NCBI GenBank assembly: GCA_937925925.1
Contig: CALANA010000114.1
Location: forward strand, 185 to 64,184
Direction of reading: 5' to 3'
From: an uncultured Chloroflexales bacterium
GTDB lineage: Bacteria; Chloroflexota; Chloroflexia; Chloroflexales; Chloroflexaceae
DNA: 64,000 nucleotides
Each line of letters starts with the position of its first letter. The first letter of the stretch is position 1. Of the stretch, positions 139 to 61,640 are shown piece after piece. The translations under genes were made by a program, and so were the position numbers. A model generated the notes under the pieces. It was given only the letters and a program-made list of their open reading frames with translations, was not told where the DNA came from and made no database searches.

Positions 139-240
139 CAGGACTTACGCAGTGGGATCGCCCGGCTCGTGAACGGGCGGGCTATTCATTTCTGCCGCAG
201 GCGAACCCCATAGGGTGATGAACGACCGCGTACCGCGTGT
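139..240. mobile_element. MITE-B copy B1 (degenerate right end)
   Basis: ccaggacttacgcagtg...cgcccggctcgtgaacgggcggg...gaccgcgtaccgcgtg. Similar to B7. Confidence 0.5.
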
Positions 241-364
241 GCATGACACGGACATGCGAAATGGTCACGTCGAAACCGTATAACTTGTGTTATTGACAGG
301 GCGTACAATAAATACCAGGCCCCGGGTGCGACGCGGGACGCGGTACCCGACCTGGTCTACGTTG

Positions 365-3300
365 CTATGATCCCTGAACCAGCGGCAGATAGACCTGAAA
401 GAGCGATGCATTCGAGTTTACGCTGAATTGGAGTTCATAGATCGGCGACTCGTTTCCGGCCTGATCCACCGCCTGATAGCGCAGATGATAACGCCCATCG
501 ACCAGCCGTCCTAGACGGAGCATCTGCCCTGGATTCTCGATCCAGGTTTGACCATCCCAGGAATAGCGCAGCAAGGCGACGCCACTCCCGCCGAGATCGT
601 CCGCTGCCAGAGTCAGATCCGGGGTGCCGGTGAAGATCGAACCAATCCGCGGCGTATCATCAACGATGCCCGGCGGCGGCGTCATAAATGTGCTGCTTCC
701 CGGTAGTTGCACCGCGTAGCCCGCCGTTGCCAGACCAGTGCGCTCAAAATATTTGAAGCTAAGGACATGCAACCCGGCCTCGAGCGTCATGGTGCCGGTC
801 ACATCGGTCGTGCTGTGCAACCCATGGTTGACCACCACAGACTCACCGTTCACCCACAGCCACGAGCCATCATCACTGGTGGTGCGGAAAACATATTCAC
901 CAGCATGAGGTGCAAAGAAGAGGCGTGTCTGCTCGACCACAAAATTATCGGCCAGCCCCAGTGGCCCGCCATCGCCCCAATCCAGCGTGCTGCCATCCCA
1001 CGCAAAACTACCCACATACTCGCCGCGTGTAATCGACAGCGGATTGCGTGTGCGGGCTAGCAAGTTATCAGGAATCGCGCCCAGTGTGTAGACATGGGCT
1101 AGCGGTTGGAACTGTGCGTCATAGCTGATCGCAACCGGGGCCATGGTTTCGGGTGTGATGGTAATGGTCTGAATCGCCGCGTTCTGTACATGATAGCCCA
1201 CATATTCCTGAATAATACCGGCTTGCAGTGTTACCGAACCGGGTTGCCGAAACCGCACATAGCCCACAATGTCGCGCTCCTCGCCTGGTTCCAGCGTGCC
1301 ATTCAAGCCCCAACGCCAGGGATAGCCACCGGTATCGCCATCACATGCCAGTGTTCGATCGGTTGCGCCAAGCAGTATCCGAAAGCGATCCGTCTCTTTG
1401 GCATAGATCGGGTAATCTTGTCCAGTGGCACCCAGGAAGCATTCACCCTCATCATAGACATAGCCATTTGGTACATTAAACGTACCATCGGGGAAGGTGC
1501 CTGCCTGGGGTATCTGACCGTGGATGGGTACATCGCCCGCATTGCGCACGGTAAAGGTCACTTTGAGAACTTCTCCAACGGCAATCGTCGTGCGTTCATA
1601 GGCAACGTTCAGCAATTCGGCGCTGGCCGTATTCTGTTCGGGTACCCACTTGACGCTATCAAAAAAGATCACCCGGCGCTGGCTGAATGGCTCACCAGTG
1701 AGATCATCCAACTCCACCGCGCCTGCCGTGCCTTGCCGAAATTCGTACACACCCAGATCAACCCACTCTTCGGCGGTGTTGTGATCAACCACGCGCTGAA
1801 AGTCGCCAGCAGCGGAGTGGATGCGATAGGTCGCCTGGCGTGTGGCATAGGGTGCTGTTCCCAGGCCACAACCCTGCGGAATATGCGCAAAAATCCGGTA
1901 GCGTCCGCTGGCAGGAATCGTCGGGCGCCAGGTAGCACGGTTGGTGCTTTCCTGCGGGTTGTCGGTGGCATAGGTATAGAAGGTATGCCCACCATAGCCG
2001 CAACTGGCCGAGTACCAGTTGGCCTGGCTACGCGCAAAAGTATCCTCAAGTTCATCGATCAGCAAGTCGCCATTATCCGGCTGACCAGGAATGAAGCCCC
2101 CGGCCTGGATGCGGTTCTGGACGCGATTGCGAATCGCGGGCAGCAGGTTGACAAATTGATCGCCGGGACACGTCGTGTGGACGGGGGTTACGTGGCGGTG
2201 ACCAGCAATATTGGCAACCACTGCACCACGGTTGTAGGGACGGCAGTATTGTGAGATGTCGCAGCCATAGTAATAGGAACGTCCGAGTGGATCGATCCCT
2301 TTTTGTGCGGCTTTCCAGGCCAGCAGTGTCACCAGGCTGTCCTGCGATGCAGGTGACGGAGCAACATTGGTGTAGGTACCGATCACCACCACGCCCATTG
2401 AGCCATAGTTGCCTGTGTCATGAAACGCCACAGCGTCATCGCCACCGCTACGCCCTTCATAGATCACGCCATTCGGGTCGATCAAGAAGTTGTAGCCCAC
2501 ATCGCCCCAGCCACGGGTAAACGTATGAAACGACCAGATTGCCCGCACCCGATCCGACCAGCGTTGCTCGCTGCCTCGCAAACTGTTGGCGTCGGCCGTG
2601 TGGTGAACAACCATATGGCTGACCGGGTAGTAGACTGGACGCACACGGCTGCCCTGCCCATCCGGGTTGCCCCAGGCCGTCCGGCTGATCACTGATGGTT
2701 TACCGACCTGGGCCAGTTCTGCAACATTGCTCAGGCTGGCCTCGGTATCAGTATTCTGATCAGGATCAGCCAGGTCAAGCCGGGTATCAATCGGAACACC
2801 AGTGTCAGTGTCGGTGTCCCGATCAGGATCAGCCGGATCAGGGGGGGGATCAACCGGAACGTCGGTCTCGGTGTCCCGATCAGCGTCAGCCGGGCCAAAG
2901 CGTGCATCAACTGTATTGACTTCAATGCGCCGCAGATCCGGCAAGGTACCATCAGGCAGCAAGTGTAGCACCGCCCGAATCTGCCAGAAACGCGCATCGT
3001 CACCAGCATGGATGACCTGGCTCCAGTAGACCTGGTCGCCATCCTGAGGCACCCACAAATCAGGATCTTCCAATACTGGTCCCCAATCACTCCAGGACTG
3101 ATTATCAACACTGACCCGCACTTCGATTGTAATCGTGTTGGTCACGGGTGCCTGCGCTTCCCAGCGGAGCAACATATGGGTGAAGGGCTGATTGGCTTCC
3201 ATTACCGGCGATAGATAGGTGTTGCCAATACTACGCAAAGCTGGCTCCTCCTCGTTCTCATCAGGAGCCACTACGAGTATCGTTTGTTCAGGACGACCGG

Positions 3301-3415
3301 TCTCTTGATCGGCCATTGCCAGTGTGTTATGAGTGTTAGCTGCCAGCACGAAGGCGAGGGTGATGCTGAAACCGGCCAGAATGCTCAGACGCAAGATTTG
3401 TCGAACCACGGACAC
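365..3415 (-). CDS. Secreted cell-wall amidase: N-acetylmuramoyl-L-alanine amidase (Amidase_2/PGRP-like) with C-terminal PA14-like domain
   Basis: 1016-aa ORF with an N-terminal hydrophobic signal-like segment. Amidase_2 motifs VVHHTA and GWGDVGYNFLIDPNGVIYEGRSGG. Acidic D/T/P-rich linker. C-terminal GEYVFRTTSDDGSWLWVNG PA14-like motif. Confidence 0.8.
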   Translation of the reverse strand: MSVVRQILRLSILAGFSITLAFVLAANTHNTLAMADQETGRPEQTILVVAPDENEEEPALRSIGNTYLSPVMEANQPFTHMLLRWEAQAPVTNTITIEVRVSVDNQSWSDWGPVLEDPDLWVPQDGDQVYWSQVIHAGDDARFWQIRAVLHLLPDGTLPDLRRIEVNTVDARFGPADADRDTETDVPVDPPPDPADPDRDTDTDTGVPIDTRLDLADPDQNTDTEASLSNVAELAQVGKPSVISRTAWGNPDGQGSRVRPVYYPVSHMVVHHTADANSLRGSEQRWSDRVRAIWSFHTFTRGWGDVGYNFLIDPNGVIYEGRSGGDDAVAFHDTGNYGSMGVVVIGTYTNVAPSPASQDSLVTLLAWKAAQKGIDPLGRSYYYGCDISQYCRPYNRGAVVANIAGHRHVTPVHTTCPGDQFVNLLPAIRNRVQNRIQAGGFIPGQPDNGDLLIDELEDTFARSQANWYSASCGYGGHTFYTYATDNPQESTNRATWRPTIPASGRYRIFAHIPQGCGLGTAPYATRQATYRIHSAAGDFQRVVDHNTAEEWVDLGVYEFRQGTAGAVELDDLTGEPFSQRRVIFFDSVKWVPEQNTASAELLNVAYERTTIAVGEVLKVTFTVRNAGDVPIHGQIPQAGTFPDGTFNVPNGYVYDEGECFLGATGQDYPIYAKETDRFRILLGATDRTLACDGDTGGYPWRWGLNGTLEPGEERDIVGYVRFRQPGSVTLQAGIIQEYVGYHVQNAAIQTITITPETMAPVAISYDAQFQPLAHVYTLGAIPDNLLARTRNPLSITRGEYVGSFAWDGSTLDWGDGGPLGLADNFVVEQTRLFFAPHAGEYVFRTTSDDGSWLWVNGESVVVNHGLHSTTDVTGTMTLEAGLHVLSFKYFERTGLATAGYAVQLPGSSTFMTPPPGIVDDTPRIGSIFTGTPDLTLAADDLGGSGVALLRYSWDGQTWIENPGQMLRLGRLVDGRYHLRYQAVDQAGNESPIYELQFSVNSNASLFQVYLPLVQGS

Positions 3416-3529
3416 TTCGCTTTCTCCATATATCAGAATCGATGAATATGTACAAAATTCTTCGTCATATGTACGAGAAAACGGTTTGAAATTGACCCTT
3501 TCGGCTGATATGTTGCTGATGAGTAAATG

Positions 3530-3670
3530 ACAGGATGTATGCGGTGGTATGGTCAGTTCGTCTTCTTTCGCCTGTGGCAGCGTGGAAACGTTGGAACGTT
3601 GGAACGTTGGAACATTCCGCTCTACCGAAGGTCAAAACTATATGATGATAGACGACCGCGTATGTCCTGT
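3530..3670. mobile_element. MITE-B copy B2 with 5-bp TSD aaatg
   Basis: TIRs acaggatgtatgcggt / accgcgtatgtcctgt. aaatg at 3525-3529 and 3671-3675. Internal 8-bp ggaacgtt x4 at 3584-3616. Confidence 0.85.
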
Positions 3671-3769
3671 AAATGAACGGGAGCTGAAGGCAACCTCGTT
3701 TCTGCCCGGCATTATGGTATAATGATGACGCTGATGGGGTGTGTCTAGTAAGCATTATCTGCAAGGTCA

Positions 3770-4417
3770 TTGATGATCATCAACAACACCATTTCGACAT
3801 CTGCGGCGCGGCACTTCTATAACTGGTGGGCCTCCTGGCAAACCTGGGTAGACTACAGCGAGAGTCGTGCCCGGAAACGCGCCCTGGATTTATTGGCACC
3901 AGCCTCTGGTCAGCGCATACTCAACGCTGGTGTAGGCACTGGTCAGACACAGGCACATCTACAGGCAGCCGTGACACCCGCTGGTATGGTTGTAGGATTG
4001 GATCTCTCACCAGTGATGCTGCATCACACTCGCGTTCGTCTCCATACCCCGCTCTGTGAGGCCGATGTGCGCCATTTACCTTTCGCCCCGGCCAGTTTTG
4101 ACGGCGTTTTTTCTAGCTTCGTGCTTGACCTGCTTCCTTTTGACGATCTGGCAGGGTTGCTGCAAGATTTTCAACGTGTTCTCAAACCCGGTGGACGGAT
4201 CGTGCTGGTCTCGCTCACAGAAGGGATTAATGCCGCCAGCCGCCTGTCCATGGCTCTCTGGAAGCTGGTTTATCGTGTTAGCCCGATCGCCTGTGGTGGA
4301 TGCCGCCCGGTGCAACTGGCCGCACTGGTGAGCCAGGCCGGCTTTTGCCAGATCGTGCGCGAGGTGGTGGTACAACTGGGCATGCCCAGCGAGATCGTGG
4401 CCGCAACCCGTTGTTAG
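3770..4417 (+). CDS. Class I SAM-dependent methyltransferase
   Basis: 215 aa. Motif I ILNAGVGTGQ. Post-I acidic residue. LKPGGRIVLVS motif. Confidence 0.8.
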   Translation: MMIINNTISTSAARHFYNWWASWQTWVDYSESRARKRALDLLAPASGQRILNAGVGTGQTQAHLQAAVTPAGMVVGLDLSPVMLHHTRVRLHTPLCEADVRHLPFAPASFDGVFSSFVLDLLPFDDLAGLLQDFQRVLKPGGRIVLVSLTEGINAASRLSMALWKLVYRVSPIACGGCRPVQLAALVSQAGFCQIVREVVVQLGMPSEIVAATRC

Positions 4418-4424
4418 CGCCATT

Positions 4425-4460
4425 GCGTCACTCCTATAGCAAGCTTACATCATTGTGAAG
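4425..4460. repeat. Solo duplicate of the MITE-A left end
   Basis: gcgtcactcctatagcaagcttacatca(t)tgtgaag repeats the 4496-4532 sequence. Confidence 0.8.
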
Positions 4461-4505
4461 TTTCATGCGGTTTCGCCGACCTACGCCGCGTGGCGGCGTC
4501 ACTCC

Positions 4506-4618
4506 TATAGCAAGCTTACATCAGTTGTGAAGAATTGGAGTCCAGGCTTTAGCCTGGGGCTAGCTCCGTCCAGCGTCAAGCCTGGAATCTGGTGTACAAT
4601 TGGTATAGGCCTGCTAGA
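4506..4618. mobile_element. MITE-A copy A1
   Basis: TIRs tatagcaagcttacatcagttgtgaag / tgtacaattggtataggcctgcta. Internal gtccaggc...gcctgga hairpins. Confidence 0.8.
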
Positions 4619-4620
4619 AT
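4593..4620 (+). promoter_or_regulatory. MITE-A1-borne outward promoter-like site TGTACA-N16-TAGAAT
   Basis: -35 at 4593-4598 and -10 at 4615-4620. The lipoprotein gene ATG is at 4635. Confidence 0.4.
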
Positions 4621-4634
4621 ATTGAGCCATAGAG

Positions 4635-6059
4635 ATGAGAGAAACGACCGGTATTCACCGCTACCCGGCTGTGCCACGCTACTGGTGGCTGCTGCTCGTG
4701 TGTTTGTTGCTCCTGTCCGCCTGCACTGCCCCCGCCGATGGGCCAGATGCCAATCCGGTGGTTGGTGTAGACGATACGCACACACCCCTGCCAACGCTCG
4801 CGCCATGGACGCCCGTGCCCCAGACGCCCGTGCCGCAAGCGACTGCCACCATTGCTCCGTCACCCACGTCCCCACTGATGGCAACCTGGACGGCAGAACT
4901 GGAAGCGACCGTGAGCGCGGGCCGGCCACATCTGTCAACACCAGTCCTGACTGGTATGCCCTCATCTGGCGGTATTGATGGAGTCCAGGTGCTGCCCGTT
5001 CCATCTACAGGCAATGTTTCCCCGGCCTGGATCGTCCATACGCACGGCATGCGTGCCTTTGACTCTGCTGAGGATCACTACGTCGCCATCTACACCCGCA
5101 CTGGTGATACCTGGCAAGAGGCCTCGCGCTTTACCCTGTCTACCGCTGATTATCTCGATGTCCAGGGTGTTTCTGTGGCACACCTCGGTTCAGACGATTT
5201 TATCTGGATCGCGGTCGAAAGCGGGGTGGGCGCTCACGGGGGATGTTTTGACGTGCTGCGCTTTGACGGTCAGAGCCTCTTCAGCGATGCCGCCAGTTGC
5301 AACACCAGCCCCGGCGCGGGTGAAATCCGTGATCTGACCGGCGATGGCACGGCGACCGAGGTCGTTCTGAACGAGAGCGACAACTATGTCTTCTGTTATG
5401 CCTGTGGTGTGCGGCTGAAGCAGTTCAGGGTATTGCGCTGGAACGGAGCCGAAATGGTAGAAGTACAACTCCAGACCTTGCCTGAATCTGCGCCAGAGGC
5501 GGTACGCACACTGAACAACCGTGCCGTTGAACTGGCCCAGGCCGGGTTATGGAAGGATGCGCAGCAGACGATTGCAACCGTTCCGCAGCCGATTACCGAC
5601 GAAACAGTGGCCTGGAATATGCGGCTCATTGAGTTGCATGCCGCAGCTCGTGCCGATCAAGTGCAGCATGGAACCTATCCATTGCTGGAGCAGATCTTCT
5701 ATGGCGATTATACGGCGGCGCTGGAGGTTATGCGTTCATTCACGGTTGCAGAACTGTTTGCCTTCCCCAATCCGCTGATTAGTGACACGGTTGCCGAGGG
5801 CTGGGAAGGTGAGCTATCAGCCTGGATCGTGAACACAACCCTGCTGGCAATTCAGGCCCAACCCGATCTCGCCGCCGCCTTCTTTCTGCGCGGTTGGGCC
5901 ATTTATCTGCTTGACCCACGCGACCCGGCGGTTCTGGACAATCTCAAGCGGGCCGCACTGATCGATCCCCGCGAGCCACTCTTCCGCGACAGTGTGGCCT
6001 ATCTCGAAGAACGCCGCCGCACCGATGATGGGTTGCCGCCCATACCAGAGGACAGGTGA
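4635..6059 (+). CDS. Putative lipoprotein/secreted protein of unknown function (FG-GAP-like DLTGDG motif, helical C-terminal half)
   Basis: 474 aa. Signal peptide with lipobox-like LLLSAC. Pro/Thr-rich linker. No enzyme motif recognised. Confidence 0.6.
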   Translation: MRETTGIHRYPAVPRYWWLLLVCLLLLSACTAPADGPDANPVVGVDDTHTPLPTLAPWTPVPQTPVPQATATIAPSPTSPLMATWTAELEATVSAGRPHLSTPVLTGMPSSGGIDGVQVLPVPSTGNVSPAWIVHTHGMRAFDSAEDHYVAIYTRTGDTWQEASRFTLSTADYLDVQGVSVAHLGSDDFIWIAVESGVGAHGGCFDVLRFDGQSLFSDAASCNTSPGAGEIRDLTGDGTATEVVLNESDNYVFCYACGVRLKQFRVLRWNGAEMVEVQLQTLPESAPEAVRTLNNRAVELAQAGLWKDAQQTIATVPQPITDETVAWNMRLIELHAAARADQVQHGTYPLLEQIFYGDYTAALEVMRSFTVAELFAFPNPLISDTVAEGWEGELSAWIVNTTLLAIQAQPDLAAAFFLRGWAIYLLDPRDPAVLDNLKRAALIDPREPLFRDSVAYLEERRRTDDGLPPIPEDR

Positions 6060-6117
6060 CGGCACGACGCTGGTAATACCAGCATGGACGTAGGACTGCA
6101 TCCATGATAACAAAGAA

Positions 6118-6248
6118 GCACGACGTACGCAGTCGCGTGGTAACTGTTCATCCTCAAGGGAACATGCCCGCGCTCCCAGCCACAAGAGAAGGTACGGCTC
6201 TGCTGCAGATGGAAAGGCGAACAATCGCTACTGCCACGCACCTCCTGT
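6118..6248. mobile_element. MITE-B copy B14 (diverged)
   Basis: gcacgacgtacgcagtcgc ... ggtacggctctgctgcag..ggaaaggcga ... ctgccacgcacctcctgt. Confidence 0.55.
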
Positions 6249-6270
6249 AATATGAGGCCATAAAGTAAGT

Positions 6271-6984
6271 ATGGATCGTTCGCTGGACATTCTCGCCAAT
6301 ACGACCGCTGACTGGGGCATGCCGCTCACAGAGGCGCAACTGGCCCAGTTTGCGCTGTATGCCGACACCTTGCGCCAGTGGAACGAACACCTGAATCTCA
6401 CCGCTATTACCGACTACAAAGCAATCATGGTGCGCCACTTTCTCGACGCATTGCGCTGTGCCCGGAGTTGGGGCAACCCACCATGTAGCTTGATCGACAT
6501 CGGCAGCGGTGCGGGACTGCCCGGACTCCCGCTCAAACTGCTATGTCCCTCTCTGGAGCTAACGCTGGTTGAGTCGGTCGGCAAGAAAGCTGCCTTTCTA
6601 CAACATATGGTTGATCGGCTGAGCTTATCGGCGGTAACAATCCTTCCTCAACGCGCCGAAGTCGTTGGACAGGATGCGCGCCACCGTGAGCGTTATGACG
6701 TGGCAACCGCACGCGCCGTCGCCCCATTAAACGTGCTGGCCGAGTATTGTCTGCCACTTCTCCAAATTGGTGGGCGCTTCCTGGCTCCGAAAGGGGCCGA
6801 CATTGCCGCCGAAATTGACCGCGCCCGGTTTGCCCTGACCACGCTCGGCGGACAACTGCTGGCCGTGGAGCCGGTTCACCTACCAGGCCTGGAGCCACGC
6901 ACGCTGGTCATTGTAGAAAAAATAGCCCCTACCCCACCACTCTACCCACGTGCCACCGGAGTGCCCGCCCGCCGCCCACTCTAA
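6271..6984 (+). CDS. rsmG: 16S rRNA (guanine527-N7)-methyltransferase RsmG (GidB)
   Basis: NLTAI...RHFLDAL, DIGSGAGLPGLPLK, ESVGKKAAFL and RAE...ARAVAPL motifs, all typical of RsmG. Confidence 0.9.
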   Translation: MDRSLDILANTTADWGMPLTEAQLAQFALYADTLRQWNEHLNLTAITDYKAIMVRHFLDALRCARSWGNPPCSLIDIGSGAGLPGLPLKLLCPSLELTLVESVGKKAAFLQHMVDRLSLSAVTILPQRAEVVGQDARHRERYDVATARAVAPLNVLAEYCLPLLQIGGRFLAPKGADIAAEIDRARFALTTLGGQLLAVEPVHLPGLEPRTLVIVEKIAPTPPLYPRATGVPARRPL

Positions 6985-7052
6985 GCGGTAACAAAAAAAT
7001 CATCTCTTCCGTATTATTTGTATAACTGGAAATATTTTGCTAGAATGAGTTA

Positions 7053-7290
7053 TACCAATTTGACGTAGCCATTCTGCATCCGTTGGTTCGTCTGACGCTT
7101 ACTCCTACGGCAACGAGATGCCCCCTGGAAAAAGCTGTCGCGGGGCGGAGAGGCGTTGCATGCAACGCCCCTCCGCCGCCCCCCTGTGGGGGGGTGCGGG
7201 GGCCGCAGGCCCCCCCGCACCCCCGCCGCGACGCCGGTGCATTGGAGGACACATGGCACGACCATGCGGAAGGGCCACGGCGAAACGGTA
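7053..7290. mobile_element. MITE-C copy C1, 3-bp TSD tta
   Basis: TIRs taccaatttgacgtagccattctgcatcc / catgcggaagggccacggcgaaacggta. tta at 7050-7052 and 7291-7293. Cores ggcgttgcatgcaacgcc and gcgggggccgcaggccccc. Confidence 0.9.
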
Positions 7291-7327
7291 TTATCCACAA
7301 AAGCAGCCGTGCTTGTTGCGCCAGATT

Positions 7328-7355
7328 TTGACCGTAGGAGCCTCAAGCATAGTAT
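7328..7355 (+). promoter_or_regulatory. Putative sigma70-type promoter of pspA (TTGACC-N16-TAGTAT)
   Basis: -35 at 7328-7333 and -10 at 7350-7355. AGGAGG Shine-Dalgarno at 7361-7366. ATG at 7375. Confidence 0.45.
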
Positions 7356-7374
7356 CCACAAGGAGGAGTCGAGC

Positions 7375-8040: not shown

Positions 8041-8083
8041 GACAAGACGTTCCTATGTGTAAAAGCATGCCCGTGTCTCAATA

Positions 8084-8265: not shown

Positions 8266-8272
8266 CAATGAT

Positions 8273-8383: not shown

Positions 8384-8385
8384 AG

Positions 8386-53336: not shown

Positions 53337-54681
53337 GCTGGCTCTGGTGCTGCTGGGTAGCACTACCAGCGCATGTGATAGCGGGCGTGATCAGGGCGGT
53401 ATGCCACGAAGTCAGCGAGTTCTGGTCATTGGTGCTGGGATGGCGGGGTTGGCCGCTGCGAGAGAGCTTAGGCGTGCAGGACAGCAAGTGCTTGTATTGG
53501 AAGCGCGAGACCGGATTGGTGGACGAACCTGGACGAGCAGCAAATGGCCTGATTTGCCCCTTGATTTAGGGGCATCATGGATACAGGGGGTTGAAGGCAA
53601 TCCAATCACAGACCTGGCTAACCAGTTGGGAGCGAAGCGCCTGGTCACAAGCTTCGAGCGCACCGTTGTTTACAACACCAACGGTCAGGTACTCTCGAAG
53701 GCAGAAGAAGCGCAGCTAGATGGCATCAGGAAACAGATGTTCAACACCTTGCATGAAGCACAAGACGCGAATGCAGATACTTCTGTCCGCCAGGCGGTCG
53801 CTGTGCTGGAGCAAAAATTTGCAGGTAATCGAGCGGCTCTTCGTTTCCTGAATTTTTGCTTGTCGAGCGAGATCGAACATGAATATGCGGGCAGTGCCAG
53901 TCGCCTTTCAGCGCACTGGTACGACAGCGGAGAACAATTCGACGGTGATGATGTTCTGTTTGCGCAGGGATACACAGTCATTACCGAGTATTTGGCGCGG
54001 GATGTTGACGTTCAGCTTTCTCAGGTCGTCAAGGAAATCCAGTGGCAGGAGCCAGAGGTCAGAGTCCGCACCACCAACAACGAGTTCGTCGCTGACCGCG
54101 TTGTCGTTACGCTGCCACTTGGCGTTTTGCAGCACAATGACGTTCGATTCGTTCCGCAATTGCCTGTAGCGAAGCGCAATGCCATCAACAAACTGGGTAT
54201 GGGGGTGTTGAACAAGTGCTTCCTTCGGTTTCCGCAAGCATTCTGGCCGGAAGACATGGATTGGCTTGGGTATGTCCCAGAACAACATGGTGAATGGACT
54301 GAGTGGGTCAGCTTCAAGCGGGCAACGCAATTGCCCATTCTGCTTGGATTCAATGCTGCCGACCGCGGGCGTGAAATTGAAGGGTGGTTAGACGAGCAAG
54401 TCGTCGCAGATGCTTTGGTAACGCTGAAGACGATCTTTGGAACCAACATACCGAACCCGATCGACTACCAGATAACACGCTGGGATGCGGATCCCTTTGC
54501 GCGTGGCTCTTACTCCTACAATGCCCTGAACTCAACACCCGCAATGCGTACTGATCTGGCAAGACCTCTTGCTGGACGGTTGTTCTTTGCCGGTGAAGCA
54601 ACCAGTAAGGACTATTTTGGAACCGCCCATGGTGCGTACTTGAGTGGCTTGCAGGCAGCAAGCGATGTCCTTTCGCCGTGA
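53311..54681 (+). CDS. Flavin-containing amine oxidase (polyamine/monoamine oxidase-like), Tat/lipoprotein-type signal
   Basis: MHKRDFLKMLALVLLGSTTSAC signal. VLVIGAGMAGLAAARELRRAG...VLEARDRIGGR dinucleotide fold. Confidence 0.85.
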   Translation: MHKRDFLKMLALVLLGSTTSACDSGRDQGGMPRSQRVLVIGAGMAGLAAARELRRAGQQVLVLEARDRIGGRTWTSSKWPDLPLDLGASWIQGVEGNPITDLANQLGAKRLVTSFERTVVYNTNGQVLSKAEEAQLDGIRKQMFNTLHEAQDANADTSVRQAVAVLEQKFAGNRAALRFLNFCLSSEIEHEYAGSASRLSAHWYDSGEQFDGDDVLFAQGYTVITEYLARDVDVQLSQVVKEIQWQEPEVRVRTTNNEFVADRVVVTLPLGVLQHNDVRFVPQLPVAKRNAINKLGMGVLNKCFLRFPQAFWPEDMDWLGYVPEQHGEWTEWVSFKRATQLPILLGFNAADRGREIEGWLDEQVVADALVTLKTIFGTNIPNPIDYQITRWDADPFARGSYSYNALNSTPAMRTDLARPLAGRLFFAGEATSKDYFGTAHGAYLSGLQAASDVLSP

Positions 54682-54689
54682 TCTGTTGT

Positions 54690-54960
54690 CGCCCAACCAT
54701 GCGCTGCATCTGACGCCGCTCCGCGTACGGCTGAACCCAACCGTTATGCGGCGGGTGAGACAAAAGACCGTTGAAACAGAGATGGCACACCGTAAGCGAA
54801 CGGAGGCCAGGAAGCAAGCGTCGGATTCGACGGTCGGCGGGGTGCAGGGGGTTGGTATCCATATCTCTTTATCTTTCGACTCGCTTGCAACCTGGAACCA
54901 GTTGACGCTGGAACTGCCACCCAGGAGCATATTTATCCAGATGTGGTAGCACCCGGTTGC
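54690..54960 (-). pseudogene. Possible degraded C-terminal fragment of a DDE (rve-type) transposase
   Basis: Minus-strand frames give ...GCKRVER(stop) followed by ...CFNGLLSHPPHNGWVQPYAERR. These loosely resemble the NGKVERF and YN..RPH..G..P.E motifs. The match is weak and made by eye only. Confidence 0.2.
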
Positions 54961-55025
54961 CATAGTACCCTACACCAGGTATCATGGTTGTGCTGGCAAA
55001 CGTTAAACGATTGAATGGATAGATT

Positions 55026-56393
55026 ATGACGTATTGCAGGTGGGTCTACAGCCTGATCGGGTTAGGCTTGCTGTTGCTCATCCATATCAGTAATAGCACG
55101 GTGAAGACAACCCATGCCCAACCATCTGGCCCGATTTATATCGTGGAGGTACAGGGGACGATTACGAACGTTACCATTAACTACCTGGAGCGGGCGCTAC
55201 GCCAGGCGGAGGCCAGTAATGCCACGGCTTTGATCATTCAGTTGAACAATCAGGGGTCGGTGTTACGGGCGATACGTCCCTTTGCTGCGCGCATTGCCGC
55301 TGCCGAGATACCGGTGGTGGTCTATGTTGCTCCCGCACAGACCCATGCGGGTGCTGCCGGTGCTTTCTTCCTCAGCGCTGCGCATGTGTCCGCCATGGCT
55401 CCCAATACGAGCTTTGGTACCCCGACTCCCCTGGCGGAAATAGACGATTTGTTGACCGAACAGACACAAGAACTTTTGCTGGATAGTGTCGAGCAACAGT
55501 TACACACCTGGAATGCCGATCGAGGGCGCAACACCGATTGGGTGAATCGCGCTGTGCGCTCCGGAGTGTGGCTGACGAATGAGCAGGCGATTGCCACCAA
55601 CCCGCCTGTTGTAGACATCATTGCCCGCGACACGGACGAACTGTTGACCCTGCTTGAGGGGCGGACGATCCAGCCGGAGAATCGAGCCGAGGTGCAACTA
55701 CAAACCCTGGGCCGTGAATTAACACCGATCCGCCCGACGCTCTGGGAGCAGTTGCGTTTGCTGCTGGCTGATCCGACTGTTGCCTTTCTGTTGCTGGTCA
55801 TGGGGGCCGTGGCGATCTATGCCGAGCTGGCAAATCCAGGCACCATGATTTTTGCCGGGATCGGCATCGTGCTGATATTGAGTGCGCTGGTCGGTATGCT
55901 TTCCTTACCCGTGCGCTGGATCAGTGTTGCCGGTTTGTTTCTGGCGTTCATGCTGGTGGCAATGGATCTGTATGTACCCTCCCAGGGTGCCCTAACAGTG
56001 GTTGGCATTGTGGTGTTGATTGTGAGTGCGTTGACCCTGGTTGATACCGTTCAGGCGCCGAATGCGTTTGTGGCGCTCTGGGCGATTATGCTGGTGGTGT
56101 TGATAGCGCTGGTTGTGGTTGTGGCAAGTATCTGGCTTATTCTGCGCACTCGTACTCAACCGATTGCCACGGGGCAGGAGGGCATGCTTGGACGACTGGC
56201 AGAAGTGCGTCAGCGCCTTGAACCAGAAGGTATGGTATTTATCGAGGGAGCGCTCTGGCGTGCGATTAGTGAAGATGGAGAAGTGGAACCGGGCGAATGG
56301 GTGCGCGTGATGGCGATCTATGACTTGCGGCTGGTGGTGCGCCGCCTTGATGCTGACGATGATGCTGCTCATAGACAAGCATTCCAATCCTGA
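55026..56393 (+). CDS. NfeD family membrane-bound ClpP-class serine protease
   Basis: N-terminal ClpP-like domain (IYIVEVQGTI...), multi-TM middle region and a C-terminal NfeD OB-fold. Adjacent to an SPFH gene. Confidence 0.85.
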   Translation: MTYCRWVYSLIGLGLLLLIHISNSTVKTTHAQPSGPIYIVEVQGTITNVTINYLERALRQAEASNATALIIQLNNQGSVLRAIRPFAARIAAAEIPVVVYVAPAQTHAGAAGAFFLSAAHVSAMAPNTSFGTPTPLAEIDDLLTEQTQELLLDSVEQQLHTWNADRGRNTDWVNRAVRSGVWLTNEQAIATNPPVVDIIARDTDELLTLLEGRTIQPENRAEVQLQTLGRELTPIRPTLWEQLRLLLADPTVAFLLLVMGAVAIYAELANPGTMIFAGIGIVLILSALVGMLSLPVRWISVAGLFLAFMLVAMDLYVPSQGALTVVGIVVLIVSALTLVDTVQAPNAFVALWAIMLVVLIALVVVVASIWLILRTRTQPIATGQEGMLGRLAEVRQRLEPEGMVFIEGALWRAISEDGEVEPGEWVRVMAIYDLRLVVRRLDADDDAAHRQAFQS

Positions 56394-56396
56394 ATG

Positions 56397-56573
56397 ACAT
56401 GAGTTACGCGGTTGCTCGAACCAGACGTCTTTTTCGCCTTCGGCAGAGCGGTACTTTTGCTGTTTTTCGCTCCCCATTTTCGCCGTAGGCGAAAATGGGG
56501 AGCGAAAAAAGAGGTTCTTTGATGCTACCGCAGGCGAAAAGGCGAGCTGATCATACCACTGCGTATGTCCTGT
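56397..56573. mobile_element. MITE-B copy B12 with 5-bp TSD gaatg, inserted in the nfeD-stomatin junction
   Basis: acatgagttacgcggttgc ... perfect 22-bp stem hairpin 56463-56509 ... ccactgcgtatgtcctgt. gaatg at 56392-56396 and 56574-56578. Confidence 0.9.
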
Positions 56574-56599
56574 GAATGATAGAAAAGGAGAAGATAACC

Positions 56600-57439
56600 G
56601 TGAACGGTGGTGTTTTTCTATTTGCCTGCCTGGGTGTACTGGCCTTTATCGTCTTGATGGTCGTGTTGTCGGCGATCAAGATTATCCCCGAATATGAGCG
56701 GGGCGTGATTTTTCGCTTAGGGCGTCTGATGGGTGCGCGTGGCCCGGGTCTCTTCTTTGTGATCCCTATGTTTGAGCGCATGATCCGCGTGGATCAGCGT
56801 GTGATCACCATGGATGTGCCCGTGCAAGAGGTGATCACCCTGGATAACGTGACGATCAAGGTCAATGCCGTTCTCTACTTTCAAGTCATGAACCCCAACT
56901 GGGCCGTTACCAAGGTCATGGACTACATTCGAGCCACGATGCAAATCGCACAGACGACGTTGCGGAGTGTGGTGGGTCAGGTTGAACTGGATGACTTGCT
57001 GTCCCAGCGTGACAAAATCAATCAAAAATTACAACAAATCATTGATGAACAGACCGAACCCTGGGGGATCAAAGTCACCATTGTTGAGATTAAGGATGTT
57101 GAATTGCCCTCGACCATGCAACGGGCAATGGCAAAACAGGCTGAGGCAGAACGTGAGAAGCGCGCCAAGATCATCCATGCCGAAGGTGAACTCCAGGCGT
57201 CGAAGGCACTGGCAGCAGCGGCAGAGGTGATAGCACGTGAACCGGTCACCTTACAACTTCGCTATCTCCAGACTCTGAGTGAGATTTCAATAGAGAAGAA
57301 TAGTACGATTATTTTCCCGCTACCGGTTGATCTGATCAGGCCGTTTATGGATCACATTCAGGGTAGTTCGGACAACGGCAGTACGATTGCTGCTCCACCC
57401 TCGGTTACGGAACGGCATACGACACAACGGTTAGAATAA
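56600..57439 (+). CDS. SPFH/band 7 (stomatin/slipin) protein
   Basis: [15 protein letters not shown]... is a classic stomatin N-terminus. GTG start chosen 9 nt after the AAGGAG SD. The ATG at 56576 is created by the MITE target-site duplication. Confidence 0.9.
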
Positions 57440-57698
57440 TATCGTTTCGACTTGAACATTCCGCCTCCCACGAGACTGTGTCGCGGCGGGGGGTATGGGG
57501 GTGGGCCGCCCATGTTCCTTTTCTGGTGCGGAGCGGTGAAGCCGCGCCCTCCCTGCGGGGGGGCGGCGTAGGGGTGTTGCATGCAACGCATCCAACGCAT
57601 CTATCCCCCGCGACATCGCTTTCCACGGACAGGCGCGTTGGCGTATGCGCAAGCGTCAGACTGACCAACGGATGCGGAAGGCCGCAGTCAAACTGGTA
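57440..57698. mobile_element. MITE-C copy C3 (the left flank taa is the stomatin stop codon; the right flank is tga)
   Basis: tatcgtttcgacttgaacattccgc ... gatgcggaaggccgcagtcaaactggta. taa at 57437-57439 and tga at 57699-57701. Confidence 0.85.
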
Positions 57699-57939
57699 TG
57701 AGATCCAGATCCTGAAGCGCTCTTTAGAACACGAGTCAGAGCCTGCTAGCTCCCGGCATATGAGTCGTTATCAAACGCTATGCGTGGTCAGCCGCATGCA
57801 CAGGTTTTAACTCGCGGCGTGTGAGGTGTTGGCGATAGGCGATGCAAGAAGGAAGAGAGGTGGTATTGTGTGTCGAGAGGCACACTAGAGAGTGGTGAGC
57901 AGGTTTCGAGGATTGGTGATCCCTCGCTTCAATGCTATG

Positions 57940-58362
57940 TCAGATCGTACCATTGACGGTACGTGCCTTCGCGTTGGTCAACCGGCGCACCACGTTGACC
58001 AGTTCATCAATAAAAAAAGGTTTGGGAATATAAGCGGATACGCCGACTTCGCGTGCCTCACGTGCTAGTTGGGGATTGTCATAGGCGGTGATCAGCACCA
58101 TCGGTACATTGAAGCCTTGATCTTTGAGCGTGGTAATCAGCTTTAAGCCATTCATGCCACGCAAATTATAATCAGTAAGAAGCAAATCAAAAGGTTGTTG
58201 CTGCCAGAGTTCAAGGCCTTCTTCGGCACTCAACACCGCAGCAAATTCATAAGGCACTCCCAGATCGGGCATCGCCAGTTGGATGATACGTCCAATATGA
58301 CTATCATCTTCGACTGTAAGTATGCGTAGAACGGGAGAATCACTATCCGTCTGCACTGACAT
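57940..58362 (-). CDS. Single-domain response regulator (CheY-like)
   Basis: RILTVEDD...DLLLTDYNLRGMNG...ITAYD...KPF motifs. Start set at MSVQTD. Confidence 0.85.
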   Translation of the reverse strand: MSVQTDSDSPVLRILTVEDDSHIGRIIQLAMPDLGVPYEFAAVLSAEEGLELWQQQPFDLLLTDYNLRGMNGLKLITTLKDQGFNVPMVLITAYDNPQLAREAREVGVSAYIPKPFFIDELVNVVRRLTNAKARTVNGTI

Positions 58363-58502
58363 AACCTTACTCCATACGAATATCTGGTAGCATGCTGCGT
58401 TCAATGATCTGAAGTGGACTCTCATGGTACCACAAAACGTCCGCTCTGTACAACTGACACTTTGTTAACCTGACATCATAAAAAAGCGTTATCTGGCTGG
58501 TT

Positions 58503-58531
58503 TTGACAGCATTTTCTGCCACTTCTATAAT
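58503..58531 (+). promoter_or_regulatory. Perfect consensus sigma70 promoter TTGACA-N17-TATAAT
   Basis: -35 at 58503-58508 and -10 at 58526-58531. The ATG of the downstream ORF is at 58540, which implies a leaderless or near-leaderless mRNA. Confidence 0.6.
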
Positions 58532-58539
58532 ATGAAAAG

Positions 58540-60144
58540 ATGCATACTACGATGAATATATCGCAATCAAAGGTAGACCCGATTAGCCTTGAGGTTTTTC
58601 GCCATCGTTGCGCGGCTATTGCCGAGGAGATGGGAGCAGCATTGGGGCGTACGGCATTCTCGGCCAATATTAAGGAACGTCGGGATTATTCCTGTGCCGT
58701 GTTTGATGCGACGGGCCAGATGATCGCACAGGCGGCGCATATTCCCGTTCACCTGGGTGCGATGCCGCGCTCGGTAGCCGCTGTGTTACAGTGCTATGAC
58801 CTGGAACCAGAGGACGTGGTGATCTTGAACGATCCCTACCTTGGAGGTACGCATTTACCAGATATAACGATGGTTGCGCCTGTTTTCGTTCATTGCGCCC
58901 CATCTGATACACCCGTTTTGCTCGGTTATGTTGCCAGCCGTGCGCATCATGCTGATGTAGGTGGCATGACGCCTGGCTCGATGCCAATGAGCCGTGAGCT
59001 GTACCAGGAGGGATGTATTATTCCGCCGCTGCGCCTGCAACACCGCGGCCAGTTGAATGCCGACCTGGTGACGTTGATCTGCCATAATTCACGCACGCCG
59101 GCCGAGCGGCGTGGTGATCTAGCGGCCCAGCTCGCGTGCCATGCGCTGGGTACGCGACGGTTGCAAGAACTGGTGGCAGAGTATGGCTTGCCCTGGACAC
59201 AGGCCCATTTGCAAGCGTTGCTCAATTACGGCGAGCGGCATATGCGGGCATTGCTGGCGAGTATACCCGATGGCACCTATGGTTATGCTGATTACCTCGA
59301 TGACGACGGTTGTGGCAGTGAACTGCTGCTCATTCGTGTCCAGATCCAGATCGCAGGTGATAGCGCGATTATTGATTTTACCGGGAGTGCCGAGCAGTGT
59401 CGTGGCCCGCTCAACGCGCCCTATGCTGTCGTGGAATCGGCCGTTCACTACTGTTTCCGTTGCCTGGGAGGCCCGGATATGCCGACCTCCGCCGGTAGTT
59501 TCCGTCCTCTGTCGCTGGTCGTTCCGGCTGGCAGTTTGCTGAATCCACACCCACCAGCGCCAGTCGCCGGCGGCAATGTAGAAACATCGCAGCGCGTTGT
59601 CGATGTTGTTCTGGGTGCGCTGGCGCAGGCTTTACCGCAACACATTCCGGCAGCTTCGGCGGGTACCATGAATAACTGGACATGCGGTGGGGTTGATGCC
59701 ACGGGGAAACCATTTGCCTACTATGAGACACTGGGAGGTGGCATGGGTGCCCGGCCGGAAGCCCATGGGCTGGATGGTGTACAGGTGCATATGACCAACA
59801 CGCTGAATACGCCCGTTGAGGCACTGGAGCATCAATTTCCGTTGCGCATACATCGGTACGCATTGCGTGGCGACTCGGGCGGCAGGGGGCGGTGGCATGG
59901 GGGCATGGGTCTGGTGCGTGAGATTGAATTTCTCACGGCTGCTACGGTTAGTCTCTTAACCGAGCGGCGCACGACCGCACCCTATGGCTTGCATGGTGGT
60001 GCAACTGGTATGTCCGGGCGTAATCTCCTGATTCGTGCCAATGGTAGCGAGCAGGTACTACCGGGCAAAGGTACGTTGGAGTTATTTCCTCATGATCGTC
60101 TGTGCATGGAAACACCCGGTGGTGGTGGATGGGGTATCCTTTAG
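58540..60144 (+). CDS. hyuB: Hydantoinase B/oxoprolinase family protein
   Basis: DPISLEVFRHRCAAIAEEMGAALGRTAFSANIKERRDYSCAVFD N-terminus is typical of HyuB. Confidence 0.9.
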   Translation: MHTTMNISQSKVDPISLEVFRHRCAAIAEEMGAALGRTAFSANIKERRDYSCAVFDATGQMIAQAAHIPVHLGAMPRSVAAVLQCYDLEPEDVVILNDPYLGGTHLPDITMVAPVFVHCAPSDTPVLLGYVASRAHHADVGGMTPGSMPMSRELYQEGCIIPPLRLQHRGQLNADLVTLICHNSRTPAERRGDLAAQLACHALGTRRLQELVAEYGLPWTQAHLQALLNYGERHMRALLASIPDGTYGYADYLDDDGCGSELLLIRVQIQIAGDSAIIDFTGSAEQCRGPLNAPYAVVESAVHYCFRCLGGPDMPTSAGSFRPLSLVVPAGSLLNPHPPAPVAGGNVETSQRVVDVVLGALAQALPQHIPAASAGTMNNWTCGGVDATGKPFAYYETLGGGMGARPEAHGLDGVQVHMTNTLNTPVEALEHQFPLRIHRYALRGDSGGRGRWHGGMGLVREIEFLTAATVSLLTERRTTAPYGLHGGATGMSGRNLLIRANGSEQVLPGKGTLELFPHDRLCMETPGGGGWGIL

Positions 60145-60149
60145 ATTCT

Positions 60150-60284
60150 TTAGGACTTCCGCAGTGGTATGGCCAGTTCGCCTTTTCGCCTTCAGCAGAG
60201 CGGTACTTTGCTGCCGCAGGCGCAAAAGCTTGTCCTGAGCGAAGGTGAAGGGACGTGGTGTTCACCCGACCGCGTATGTCCTGT
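60150..60284. mobile_element. MITE-B copy B13
   Basis: ttaggacttccgcagtgg...ttttcgccttcagcagagcggtactttgctgccgcaggcgcaaaagc...cgaccgcgtatgtcctgt. It starts 6 nt after the hyuB stop codon. Confidence 0.8.
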
Positions 60285-60338
60285 TTTTGTTGTTCACCAG
60301 TCAAGATAGATCCTCTGGTAACACTCTTACGTACACTA

Positions 60339-60595
60339 TATAGTAATCCTATCTCAGTTGTGAAGACTGGAGTCCAGGCAAAAGCCTGGTCTCGCCCTAC
60401 ACCGAGACTTCGTCTCGTTAAGGGCGCAGGGGCCGCAGGCTCCCACACATGTTCTCTTTCTAAAGGAGATTTCGGCGGAGGGGCGTTGCATGCAAGATCC
60501 CTCCGTCCCTCGCAATCTCTTTCCAGGGGAAGTCTCGTTGGAGTACTCGTTCTGTCCAGGCTTTCACCTGGACTCCTTGCAATAGGCTTGCTATA
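60339..60595. mobile_element. MITE-A copy A10 carrying a nested MITE-G
   Basis: tatagtaatcctatctcagttgtgaagactggagtccaggcaaaagcctgg [insert] tgtccaggctttcacctggactccttgcaataggcttgctata. Confidence 0.8.
60396..60549. mobile_element. MITE-G copy G2 nested inside MITE-A10
   Basis: cctacaccgagacttcgtctcg ... ggcggaggggcgttgcatgcaag ... ccaggggaagtctcgttggagtact. Confidence 0.7.
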
Positions 60596-60636
60596 GTGTT
60601 ACTGCTCATATCAAACAGCTAGACTGGAACCTGATT

Positions 60637-61509
60637 ATGTTTCGACGTTCTACGGATTTGCGTTCACTGCTGATAGGCCTGCTCAGTATCTATCTCTTTG
60701 TGTATCCGTGGGGCATACTCCTGATAGCGCTGGATCGTGTCCCGGCCTGGGGTGTTGGGATGGGGGCGATTCTGTTGATCCTCCAGGGGACGATGATGGG
60801 CCTGTGGCTAACGGCTCGCTATCGCTGGCGCGGCACTCTAGCTGCGCTCCTGATCTTGCTCATCTCCTGGTGGGCTGAACATCTGGGTGAGACCAGTGGC
60901 TTTCCCTTCGGTCAGTATACCTATACCGAGGTTCTTGCACCAAAAATTATACATGTGGTGCCACTGGCGATACCCTTTGCCTGGCTCCTTGTCATTCCGG
61001 CAGCAGTAGGTATTACCGATCGGCTGATGGCCTTCGACCCTGGTACCTCTGAGACCTCGCTGGGCAATGTTGTTCTTACAACGCTGGCAGCCGCATCGTT
61101 TGCGACACTGCTTGATGTTACGATTGAGCCGGTTGCTGTCCATGTCAATCGGTACTGGATCTGGCACGATAGTGGTGGCTATTACGGCGTGCCGCTTTCT
61201 AATTTTGCGGCCTGGTGGACGATCAGCGCCCTCCTGGTCTGGATTTTGGTATGGTTGCGCCAGAATGCGCATACATCGGTCTGGCCACCGTTAACGCCAG
61301 TGGTGCGGATGGAATGGCTACCGCAGTTACTGTATCTGCTCAATCTGATCATGTTTGTGGTGATTAACTTGAGCAACCGCCATCTGGCCGCTGCCAGCAT
61401 CGGGTTGCTGGTGCTGGTCTATCTGGCCTTTGATCGGCTAGAACCAGGCATGGTACGCTGGGTGATGGGCGGGATCGAACGCAGTGATACCCGGCAGGGA
61501 CGGGCATAA
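60637..61509 (+). CDS. Carotenoid biosynthesis membrane protein (Caroten_synth/CruF-like hydratase family)
   Basis: Polytopic membrane protein. The EHLGETSGFPFGQYTYTEVLAPKI...VPLAIPFAW motif resembles the family signature. Confidence 0.65.
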   Translation: MFRRSTDLRSLLIGLLSIYLFVYPWGILLIALDRVPAWGVGMGAILLILQGTMMGLWLTARYRWRGTLAALLILLISWWAEHLGETSGFPFGQYTYTEVLAPKIIHVVPLAIPFAWLLVIPAAVGITDRLMAFDPGTSETSLGNVVLTTLAAASFATLLDVTIEPVAVHVNRYWIWHDSGGYYGVPLSNFAAWWTISALLVWILVWLRQNAHTSVWPPLTPVVRMEWLPQLLYLLNLIMFVVINLSNRHLAAASIGLLVLVYLAFDRLEPGMVRWVMGGIERSDTRQGRA

Positions 61510-61517
61510 GCAGGTTA

Positions 61518-61640
61518 TACCGTTTCGATGTGACCCGTCCGCATGTTCGTACCATTCGTCCTCCACCGAGCCTGCGTCGCGGTGGGGTATGGGGCCTGCG
61601 CTCTCCGCCCATGTGGGAATTTCGGCGGAGGGGCGTGGCC
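61518..61640. mobile_element. MITE-C copy C4, truncated (left half only)
   Basis: taccgtttcgatgtgacccgtccgcatgttcgtaccattcgtc... preceded by tta. Homology is lost after ggcggaggggcgt. Confidence 0.7.

Follow-up and report, generated by a model that had tools for sequence, protein, structure and literature searches.

How does the intergenic DNA of a bacterial chromosome come to be crowded with short inverted-repeat elements when no transposase gene is recognised among them? The question is raised by a 64-kb stretch of DNA from an uncultured Chloroflexales bacterium (assembly GCA_937925925.1, contig CALANA010000114.1, positions 185 to 64,184), which was analysed as a whole and is called the window here, with positions counted from its first letter. 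The initial annotation had described seven families of repeats bounded by terminal inverted repeats (TIRs) in this DNA, and all seven motifs indeed recur, with about none expected in shuffled sequence. We consider it highly probable, at roughly 90%, that these repeats are non-coding MITEs (miniature inverted-repeat transposable elements) of at least seven families, A to G, moved in trans, now or recently, by transposases encoded elsewhere. That the elements are mobile, or were so recently, is supported because close relatives carry them at different sites. According to this model each family would retain only the TIRs to which a transposase binds and a foldback interior, and insertion would duplicate a family-specific number of target bases. 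Insertions would survive only between genes, elements would enter one another and hairpin modules would expand in tandem. Turnover would be fast, most insertion sites differing between genomes about 10% apart.

Empty and occupied sites in relatives

Syntenic contigs, some near-identical and some 86–97% identical to the window, were found in metagenome-assembled genomes (MAGs) at NCBI and in ENA and JGI metagenomes. Orthologous loci were compared in five syntenic relatives, namely L018 (96–99% nucleotide identity, covering window positions 1–19979), L020 (86–89%, 364–21123), L015 (about 90%, 21848–32872), L009 (88–95%, 36148–61508) and the group L010–L012 (about 88–91%, about 43781–61926). Empty sites that are exact to the base and contain the target once were found for the A elements at 36803, 49895 and 32577, for C at 7052, E at 22874, D at 29621 and F at 29930 and 32329. 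Reciprocal insertions occur as well: a single TA of the window corresponds to an A copy at 8472–8584 in L015, and a single TCA of the window to a C shell at 3064–3336 in L015, into which a B-like element is nested. Moreover, elements are nested or stacked, with a G element inside an A element (60396–60545), a B element inside another A element (18568–18679) and the second E copy sitting in an A-like element's terminus. The number of window sites that differ from the respective relative is about 2–3 of 15 for L018, 8 of 13 for L009 and 10 of 12 for L015, and the relatives themselves contain 0.4–0.8 elements per kb, at partly different sites.

The structure of TIRs and target duplications survives alignment of the copies. 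The duplications are those originally described, TA for A, 5 bp for B, TAA or TTA for C (with TCA in addition in a relative), CTAG for E, and 8 and 9 bp for F. Empty sites and family-specific duplications together support the proposal of non-autonomous elements of several chemistries that are mobilised in trans.

How much of the window do these elements occupy? Reading of all intergenic DNA and a profile search for each family led to a catalogue of 45 entries, copies and fragments together: 12 of A, 16 of B, 5 of C, 4 each of D and F, and 2 each of E and G. In detail, there are 11 copies and one fragment of A, 13 two-ended and 3 partial copies of B, 3 two-ended and 2 partial copies of C, four D loci, two of them with internal tandem arrays, two E copies, two clear and two older F copies, and two G copies, one of which is nested in an A copy; a G-like core is also found within every C copy. 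Motif searches that allowed 2–3 mismatches returned 5, 14, 4 and 7 matches against about zero expected in shuffles, and comparison of the window with itself sorted its direct repeats into 52 families and brought up 49 local inverted repeats. The union of the elements amounts to 6288 bp, or 9.8% of the window; of the 13.4 kb of intergenic DNA it takes up 47%. The density is 0.7 element per kb, and no element overlaps any recognisable coding region. Elements had been said to lie in nearly every intergenic gap; with 25 of the 32 gaps that reach 100 bp occupied, or 78%, that wording was slightly overstated. Tandem (14/18), divergent (6/8) and convergent gaps (4/5) are occupied alike, and no bias towards one of these types was found in the window. 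Intergenic DNA makes up 21% of the window and, by a tally of gene calls, about 12% of L037, a piece of a related genome; subtraction of the elements brings the share in the window to about 12%.

The elements are 90–313 bp long, and open reading frames (ORFs) that run across them have no Pfam match. Several long ORFs span elements spuriously, as had been anticipated, for example 9718–10134, 25513–26052, 47939–48316 and 49531–50052, and one of them, 36915–37367, is listed as a gene in a public annotation. Pfam scans of about 49 ORFs revealed no transposase domain in the window, in agreement with the initial annotation. The doubtful transposase remnant that it placed at 54690–54960 has no Pfam match at E<=0.1 in either of the two overlapping frames, and this candidate was rejected. 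No Rfam family matched the window at or above its gathering threshold, and a tRNA scan of the window found none. All families fold with paired termini (z-scores of −1.7 to −4.7), and copies of A are on average 71% identical in pairwise comparison, those of B 58%.

The seven families and their candidate parents

Family A consists of near-palindromes of about 113 bp (TAGCAATCCTAC...GTAGGATTGCTA) with two CCAGGC-N4-GCCTGG hairpins and duplicates TA, as seen in four base-precise pairs of empty and filled sites. The copy at 36803–36916 (plus strand, TA duplication) is absent from L009, where the empty site reads GGAGATCTATATCTGCC; the junction is GGAGATC-TA-TATCTGCC in L009 versus TA[TAG...CTA]TA in the window. 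The copy at 49895–50004 (plus), with a degenerate left end, is absent from L009 and L010, and the empty site of both reads ...CCTCGTGT TA TTTACGAG with a single TA. At 32577–32692 (plus) the copy and its TA duplication correspond to a single TA in L015. The copy at 8272–8384 (plus) is present in L018 and absent from L020, and L020 lacks both the copy at 12972–13085 (plus) and the gene 11935–12969. Further members are a copy at 4506–4619 (plus, profile E=5e-30), an A-like variant at 32180–32293 (minus, E=3e-17) that is present in L015, and a left-end fragment at 4425–4460 (plus) that stems from a local duplication including 10 bp of flank. The copy at 60338–60596 (plus) harbors the nested G element, and the orthologous A elements of L009 and L010 are without G and have CTAG at that point. 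At 18541–18697 (plus) an A shell with a 68-bp internal deletion contains the nested B element; L018 has an undeleted A with the same nested B. At the same site L020 (L020rc about 18439–18491) has only a 55-bp B-like hairpin, a difference that suggests an insertion hotspot or a partial deletion.

In two copies of family A the hairpins have multiplied. In the copy at 32925–33090 (plus) the hairpin module is internally duplicated, and the one at 47961–48273 (plus) has grown by seven tandem 28-bp hairpin units, of which L009 has three; the whole element is missing from L010 (37 bp versus 345 bp). Such tandem expansion of hairpin modules inside elements is seen at 47961–48273, 9837–10092 and 25865–25983, and the number of units varies between strains.

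The TA duplication of A would fit a cut-and-paste mechanism of the IS630/Tc1-mariner type, and a parent of IS630 type would carry flanking TAGCAATCC. In this respect A resembles the IS630-derived MITEs of cyanobacteria, such as Nezha, and the eukaryotic Stowaway elements (Tc1/mariner), which are likewise non-coding and intergenic, have TIRs and duplicate TA, as E and G possibly do; the likeness is one of these features, and no IS630-type transposase with matching TIRs was found here. A second counterpart is provided by the Correia elements (CREE) of Neisseria, which are about 100–150 bp long, have long TIRs ending in TATAG, duplicate TA, form a long hairpin, are strictly intergenic and numerous, and have no cognate transposase identified in the host. 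CREE belong to hosts of another phylum and are not known to resemble A in sequence beyond the TATAG terminus and the TA duplication, and they do not have the two CCAGGC-N4-GCCTGG hairpins that are able to expand in tandem.

Family B elements measure 103–259 bp and have arms of about 55 bp starting with ACAGGACGTACGCGGT and a variable centre, often with a further hairpin. The 5-bp target duplication is perfect in three independent copies (AAATG, GAATG, CATTG) and matches at four of five positions in four more; the model assigns B no partner. Perfect duplications flank, for instance, the copies at 3530–3670 (AAATG), which is missing from L020 along with the neighboring gene, and 56397–56573 (GAATG), whose counterpart in L009 is without the central hairpin. 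Elements of this family are missing from the orthologous gaps at 60151, 31053, 37020, 8085 and 6118. More precisely, the copy at 60151–60284 is absent from L009 and L010 (TAGATTC|CGGTTGTTCA); that at 31053–31181 is absent from L015 (5 bp versus 144 bp, with a junction that is not base-precise); that at 37020–37181, which has a central hairpin, is absent from L009, where the whole gap is 55 bp versus 506 bp; that at 8085–8265 (flanks CAATA/CAATG) is absent from L018; and the degenerate copy at 6118–6257 is absent from L020 (83 bp versus 197 bp). Other copies are shared with relatives: the short one at 138–240 (TIR CCAGGACTTACGCAGT / ACCGCGTACCGCGTGT) is present in L018, a diverged version of that at 49701–49891 occurs in L009 and L010, and the copy at 44167–44425, with two extra internal palindromic modules, is found in L009 and L010 minus 50 bp (44215–44264). 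At 25575–25718 L015 carries a different B copy. The family is completed by a copy at 18229–18401 (flanks ACTGT/ACTTT), a degenerate one at 13088–13198 with only the right TIR clear, a right half at 49630–49694 and an isolated TIR-like fragment at 50138–50153 (plus).

B copies hold optional palindromic modules of 45–50 bp (56463–56509, 44310–44358, 37072–37112, 8117–8167, 44215–44264). The outer stem of these modules varies in sequence between copies and keeps its complementarity, and modules are present or absent among orthologous B copies. They may be tiny nested elements or products of hairpin-templated repair.

Family C is about 240 bp long, with TIRs of roughly 28 bp (TACCGTTTCGACGTGACC..., terminus TACCGTTTCGACG...) and a core homologous to G. 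Its target duplication is a 3-bp TNA. The copy at 7052–7290 (minus), with a TTA duplication, is precisely absent from the 96–99% identical L018, which has a single TTA. TAA flanks the copy at 52909–53145 (plus), which lies within a 3-kb segment missing from relatives, and TCA is found for the C shell of L015 (3064–3336) against the window. The copy at 57440–57699 (plus) has the flanks TAA/TGA and corresponds to unrelated sequence in L009. A terminal fragment at 241–285 (minus) ends in ...CGAAACCGTA|TAA, and a truncated left half lies at 61518–61639 (plus, profile E=6e-20). This duplication would suggest an IS5-family or Harbinger-type mechanism for C, and it is the one that IS5-family elements of the IS1031/ISL2 type and the Tourist MITEs (PIF/Harbinger) make. 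The ends of IS5-family elements usually start with GG or GA, and the termini of C, E and G (TACCGTTTCGACG..., TGGTTGACC... and TACTCCACC...) appear unlike them.

Elements of families E (TGGTTGACCAC...GTGGTCAACCA, terminus TGGTTGACC...) and G (TACTCCACCGAGAC...GTCTCGTTGGAGTA, terminus TACTCCACC...) sit in CTAG. The first E copy, at 22874–22964 with flanks CTCG/CTAG, is absent from L015, which has a single CTAG there. The second, at 32064–32179, has CTAG on both sides and abuts the next A-like element, at whose terminus it is inserted; L015 lacks it as well, the junction not being a clean single-target one. Apart from the nested copy, G is represented by a copy at 42669–42806 (plus) with CTAG on both sides, in whose place L009 has unrelated sequence with an F-like element.

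Which chemistry would place E and G into CTAG? IS5/Harbinger-type transposition had been suggested, and it fits, CTAG being also a target type of IS5; but CTAG alone does not discriminate between an IS5-like duplication of 4 bp and an IS630-like duplication of the TA within it. We leave room for the alternative that E and G, and possibly C, share the IS630-type chemistry of A, so that fewer types of transposase would be involved than initially supposed. The junctions parse equally well as C-TA-[GTGGTTGACC...GGTCAACCAC]-TA-G for E and as C-TA-[GTACTCC...GGAGTAC]-TA-G for G, and IS630 is said to prefer CTAG and to duplicate TA, an observation reportedly made by Tenzen and Ohtsubo in 1991. On the other hand, the 3-bp duplications of C, TCA and TTA among them, do not allow a reading as TA, and the termini of A, E and G have no similarity to one another. 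We regard a chemistry common to these families as a serious contender, if somewhat short of an even chance.

A different ancestry is supported for D and F, which appear to derive from IS66-family (ISBst12-like) elements, the link being the adjacency of their termini to truncated transposase remnants in relatives. Both families have termini GTAAC(T/C)GTTCA, which are typical of the IS66 family and whose inverted repeat starts with GTAA, and they duplicate 8–9 bp (F1 8 bp, F2 9 bp, and D 9 bp, or 8 bp under an alternative parse). An inverted repeat starting with GTAAGCG and 8-bp direct repeats have been described for the IS66 family (PMC11946415), and ISDge4 of the ISBst12 group of this family has the TIR GTAACTGCTCAGCA and an 8-bp direct repeat (PMC12898284). 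L021 has a 305-bp insertion, missing in L020, whose first bases are the D terminus GTAACTGTTCACACTTGGGGGG. It codes for the C-terminal end, about 70 residues, of an IS66 DDE transposase, recognised by PF03050 with 26.3 bits and E=5.8e-6, a value above the gathering threshold. Moreover, in L035 the 5' part of an IS66 transposase gene (PF03050) is preceded by GTAATCGTTCAGGGGGGG, which matches 15 of 16 bases of the F TIR. D and F differ from IS66 elements proper as non-coding derivatives of 100–220 bp with GC-rich palindromic or tandem-array interiors. An intact IS66 parent was sought by a metagenome scan with the 72-residue remnant and none was found among the matches listed, which included two distant loci at 45–47% identity. 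The remnant of L035 (78% TelA identity) adjoins a tandem array of CCCATTGGATCT-like units at 5680–5860, and the same contig contains type III CRISPR (Cmr/RAMP) genes in 1–4050.

D had been described as GC-rich cores. The cores are there, but D is more than a core, namely a bounded element with termini and an 8–9-bp duplication that is related to F, both being tied to the IS66 family. Its termini are GTA(A/C)CTGTTCAC (terminal sequences GTAACTGTTCAC, GTACCTGTTCAC and GTAAACGTTCCC), and its palindromic cores form arrays of 41-bp or 30/50-bp units. The copy at 29621–29766 (plus) is absent from L015, which has a single target copy, and is flanked by a perfect 9-bp duplication, CTAGCTGTA, or alternatively by 8 bp, A(T/G)CTAGCT, with the termini GTAC...GCAC. 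The copy at 24418–24521 (plus; GTAAACGTTCCC...CTGAACGGCTAC) is absent from L015 as well. At 25821–26037 (minus), a D element ending in ...CAAATGTGAACAGTTAC has an internal array of three 41-bp units (25865–25983), and the entire block is missing from L015 (GGACACGGTA|GATTTGAC). The fourth locus, 9837–10092, is a GC-rich tandem array of D type with units of 20, 30, 50 and 80 bp, the right end GTGAACAGGTAC and a different number of units in L018.

Family F (GTAACCGTTCAG...CTGAACGGTTAC) includes the clear copies F1 at 29930–30046 (plus) and F2 at 32329–32434 (plus), with perfect duplications of 8 bp (AGATCTGC) and 9 bp (AACGATACC), respectively; both are absent from L015, which has single targets (AGATCTGT and AGCGAGACC). 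An older copy lies at 9660–9785 (plus; GTAACCGTTTACC...GAGTGGTTAC, profile E=2.5e-26), and an F-like copy at 24092–24207 (plus, E=5e-5) overlaps the spurious ORF 24101–24355; the region 24058–24550 around it measures 493 bp in the window versus 140 bp in L015. A gene for a reductase of the Old Yellow Enzyme type (Oxidored_FMN) has its likely ATG about 10 bp downstream of F1. The GTG listed as start of this gene, at 30013, falls inside the element, and the insertion has therefore probably altered the 5' region or the promoter of the gene.

Alternative origins and distribution

Could the repeats have arisen in a way other than by transposases acting in trans on TIRs? Repetitive extragenic palindromic (REP) sequences and their mosaic arrays (bacterial interspersed mosaic elements, BIME) are spread by REP-associated tyrosine transposases (RAYT, of the Y1 type of IS200/IS605) and would not be derivatives of DDE transposons. 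Many of the elements described here are GC-rich palindromes like the REP/BIME arrays of proteobacteria; the D cores and the hairpin units of A form intergenic, BIME-like tandem arrays, and B has small optional palindromic modules. REPs are imperfect palindromes with a GTAG/CGTC tag and do not form a unit bounded by TIRs. Their length is 20–40 bp, and they make no target duplication (PMC3733652). In contrast, the elements of the window are larger (90–310 bp), have TIRs of 12–55 bp and duplicate a family-specific 2–9 bp of target, and neither RAYT nor a Y1 transposase was found by Pfam scans of the window ORFs. The target-site duplications largely rule out a REP/BIME origin, which we judge very improbable.

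Just as improbable is that the repeats are ancestral, immobile motifs, such as terminators, regulatory hairpins or structured RNAs, kept by selection. The stable folding of all families and their strict confinement to the space between genes would suit such motifs, as would the central hairpin of B, which keeps its complementarity while its sequence changes between copies. Yet most copies are missing at orthologous sites of relatives of 86–99% identity in which the single targets are intact, the relatives carry copies elsewhere, no Rfam family is matched, and occupancy is alike in the three types of gap; the empty sites refute this origin. Individual copies may still have been exapted secondarily. 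Finally, chimeric joins at repeats during metagenome assembly are a negligible concern even though the window and all relatives are metagenome-derived contigs, since independent Logan assemblies of run ERR9287890 cover parts of the window (contig L001 is 100% identical to 10091–21884, across several elements, and L008 and L034 encode exact window proteins in the same gene order), three separate NCBI MAGs (L010–L012) share identical states at the compared sites, and the elements are shorter than reads and have syntenic genes on both sides.

Several observations weigh against the interpretation as MITEs moved in trans. For none of the families did the searches recover an autonomous element with matching TIRs, and in the case of A, B, C, E or G they did not turn up so much as a remnant. 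The link of D and F to IS66 runs through truncated remnants in relatives, of which the L021 fragment has one recognisable terminus only, and the 9-bp repeat flanking this fragment could reflect a microhomology deletion in L020 instead of an insertion. The copies within a family are very divergent, and no near-identical pair exists in the window; a very recent or current burst is therefore not demonstrated. In addition, the empty sites of B are not base-precise, divergence of the intergenic DNA prevents an exact junction for A at 47961 versus L010 and for G at 42669, and some of the presence/absence differences could be deletions.

The families are not unique to this locus. Among 185,579 species representatives, a collection that does not include the species of the window itself, a strict pattern for family A gave six hits, all in one genome, that of Chloroflexaceae bacterium H113_106, on six contigs. 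These loci have in common with the window only A, B, D and F elements, their flanking genes being different, and members of the families also occur outside the window span in L020 (20568–21012). Profiles of all seven families found nothing in about 55 kb of relatives at 76–78% protein identity (L035–L037), and a blastn search of 72,556 plasmids with a concatenate of the seven families gave no match. In viral contigs, nothing was found for the D terminus or the A pattern, and the ten matches to the B TIR are no more than chance would give. Possibly the families are restricted to a narrow clade together with H113_106. A search of the literature on MITEs in Chloroflexi, Anaerolineae and Chloroflexales retrieved no prior description; the seven families are new, undescribed families of a well-known kind, and the concept of MITEs itself is unchanged by them.

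Among mobile elements, the MITEs of prokaryotes are considered the least studied. The density had been called unusual for a bacterial chromosome, a statement that holds for the window and about 75 kb of the relatives' loci; in this DNA, the elements are notably dense, diverse and quick to turn over for a bacterium. As in the MITE-rich prokaryotes Microcystis and Ca. Thiomargarita nelsonii (PMC4853749), there are many families per genome and nesting in mobile elements; here the elements make up about 10% of a 64-kb chromosomal stretch, a figure for the window and not for a whole genome. According to a 2024 review, plant-like MITE loads of 8–10% are not seen in prokaryotes (PMC10969869). It is conceivable, albeit doubtful, that the lineage has such a load genome-wide, with about 10% of its DNA in thousands of copies of at least seven families, served by at least four types of transposase and in part derived from IS66, with turnover so fast that most sites differ between genomes 10% apart, and with modular hairpins possibly maintained or co-opted by the host; it would then harbor the densest and most diverse population of MITEs recorded in a prokaryote. 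The lineage offers a natural system for studying how non-autonomous elements multiply in bacteria and are cleared again and how MITEs inflate intergenic DNA (21% versus about 12%). How the elements mislead gene callers and fragment short-read assemblies is a further question to pursue in it. The IS66 link adds, for two of the families, a parent family seldom tied to MITEs; to our knowledge, IS66-derived MITEs have rarely been described.

Genomic setting

The G+C content of the window is about 54%. Its genes are ordinary chromosomal ones, encoding RsmG, PspA, an aminotransferase, a WD40 kinase, URO-D, TGT, TelA, MazG, Mrr, NfeD/SPFH, hydantoinase B and a carotenoid synthase, among others. The nearest named homologues of the proteins, at about 70% identity, are from Chloroflexaceae/Chloroflexales MAGs, Oscillochloris and Chloroflexus. 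Since IMG 3300032356, one source of syntenic contigs, carries the description of an assembly from a hot-spring mat, the host is taken to be an uncultured member of the Chloroflexales of hot-spring mats.

At 28770–29191, a segment of 372 nt lies between the arms of a 25-nt inverted repeat, which are 92% complementary; it contains a 77-residue ORF that has no Pfam match. This region falls outside families A to G, is present in L015 with a difference of 54 bp, and may be another, larger TIR-bounded element. The short ORF 40234–40443 has HEPN (RiboL-PSP) Pfam matches, is annotated in the Logan contig L008 (7572–7781) and is probably the remnant of a toxin or defence gene. Two paralogous genes, 42935–44116 and 48291–49403, share about 72% DNA identity, have no Pfam match and lie 5.3 kb apart, flanking a TelA/VWA operon; both are kept in the relatives.

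The gene content itself varies. L009 and L010 have 26 bp in place of a segment of about 3 kb (51972–54950) with a gene for an Mrr-type restriction endonuclease (52000–52908), a family C element and an amine-oxidase gene (53311–54681). Because its boundaries are without element termini, this segment is read as a gene-content indel. L018 has a 431-bp deletion within the gene 11935–12969. This gene and those at 3770–4417 and 7300–8040, comprising together a methyltransferase, PspA and a repeat-containing 344-residue ORF, are missing from the relatives L019–L021 of 86–89% identity, each along with the adjacent MITEs, and in these three absences changes in gene content coincide with MITE-rich gaps.

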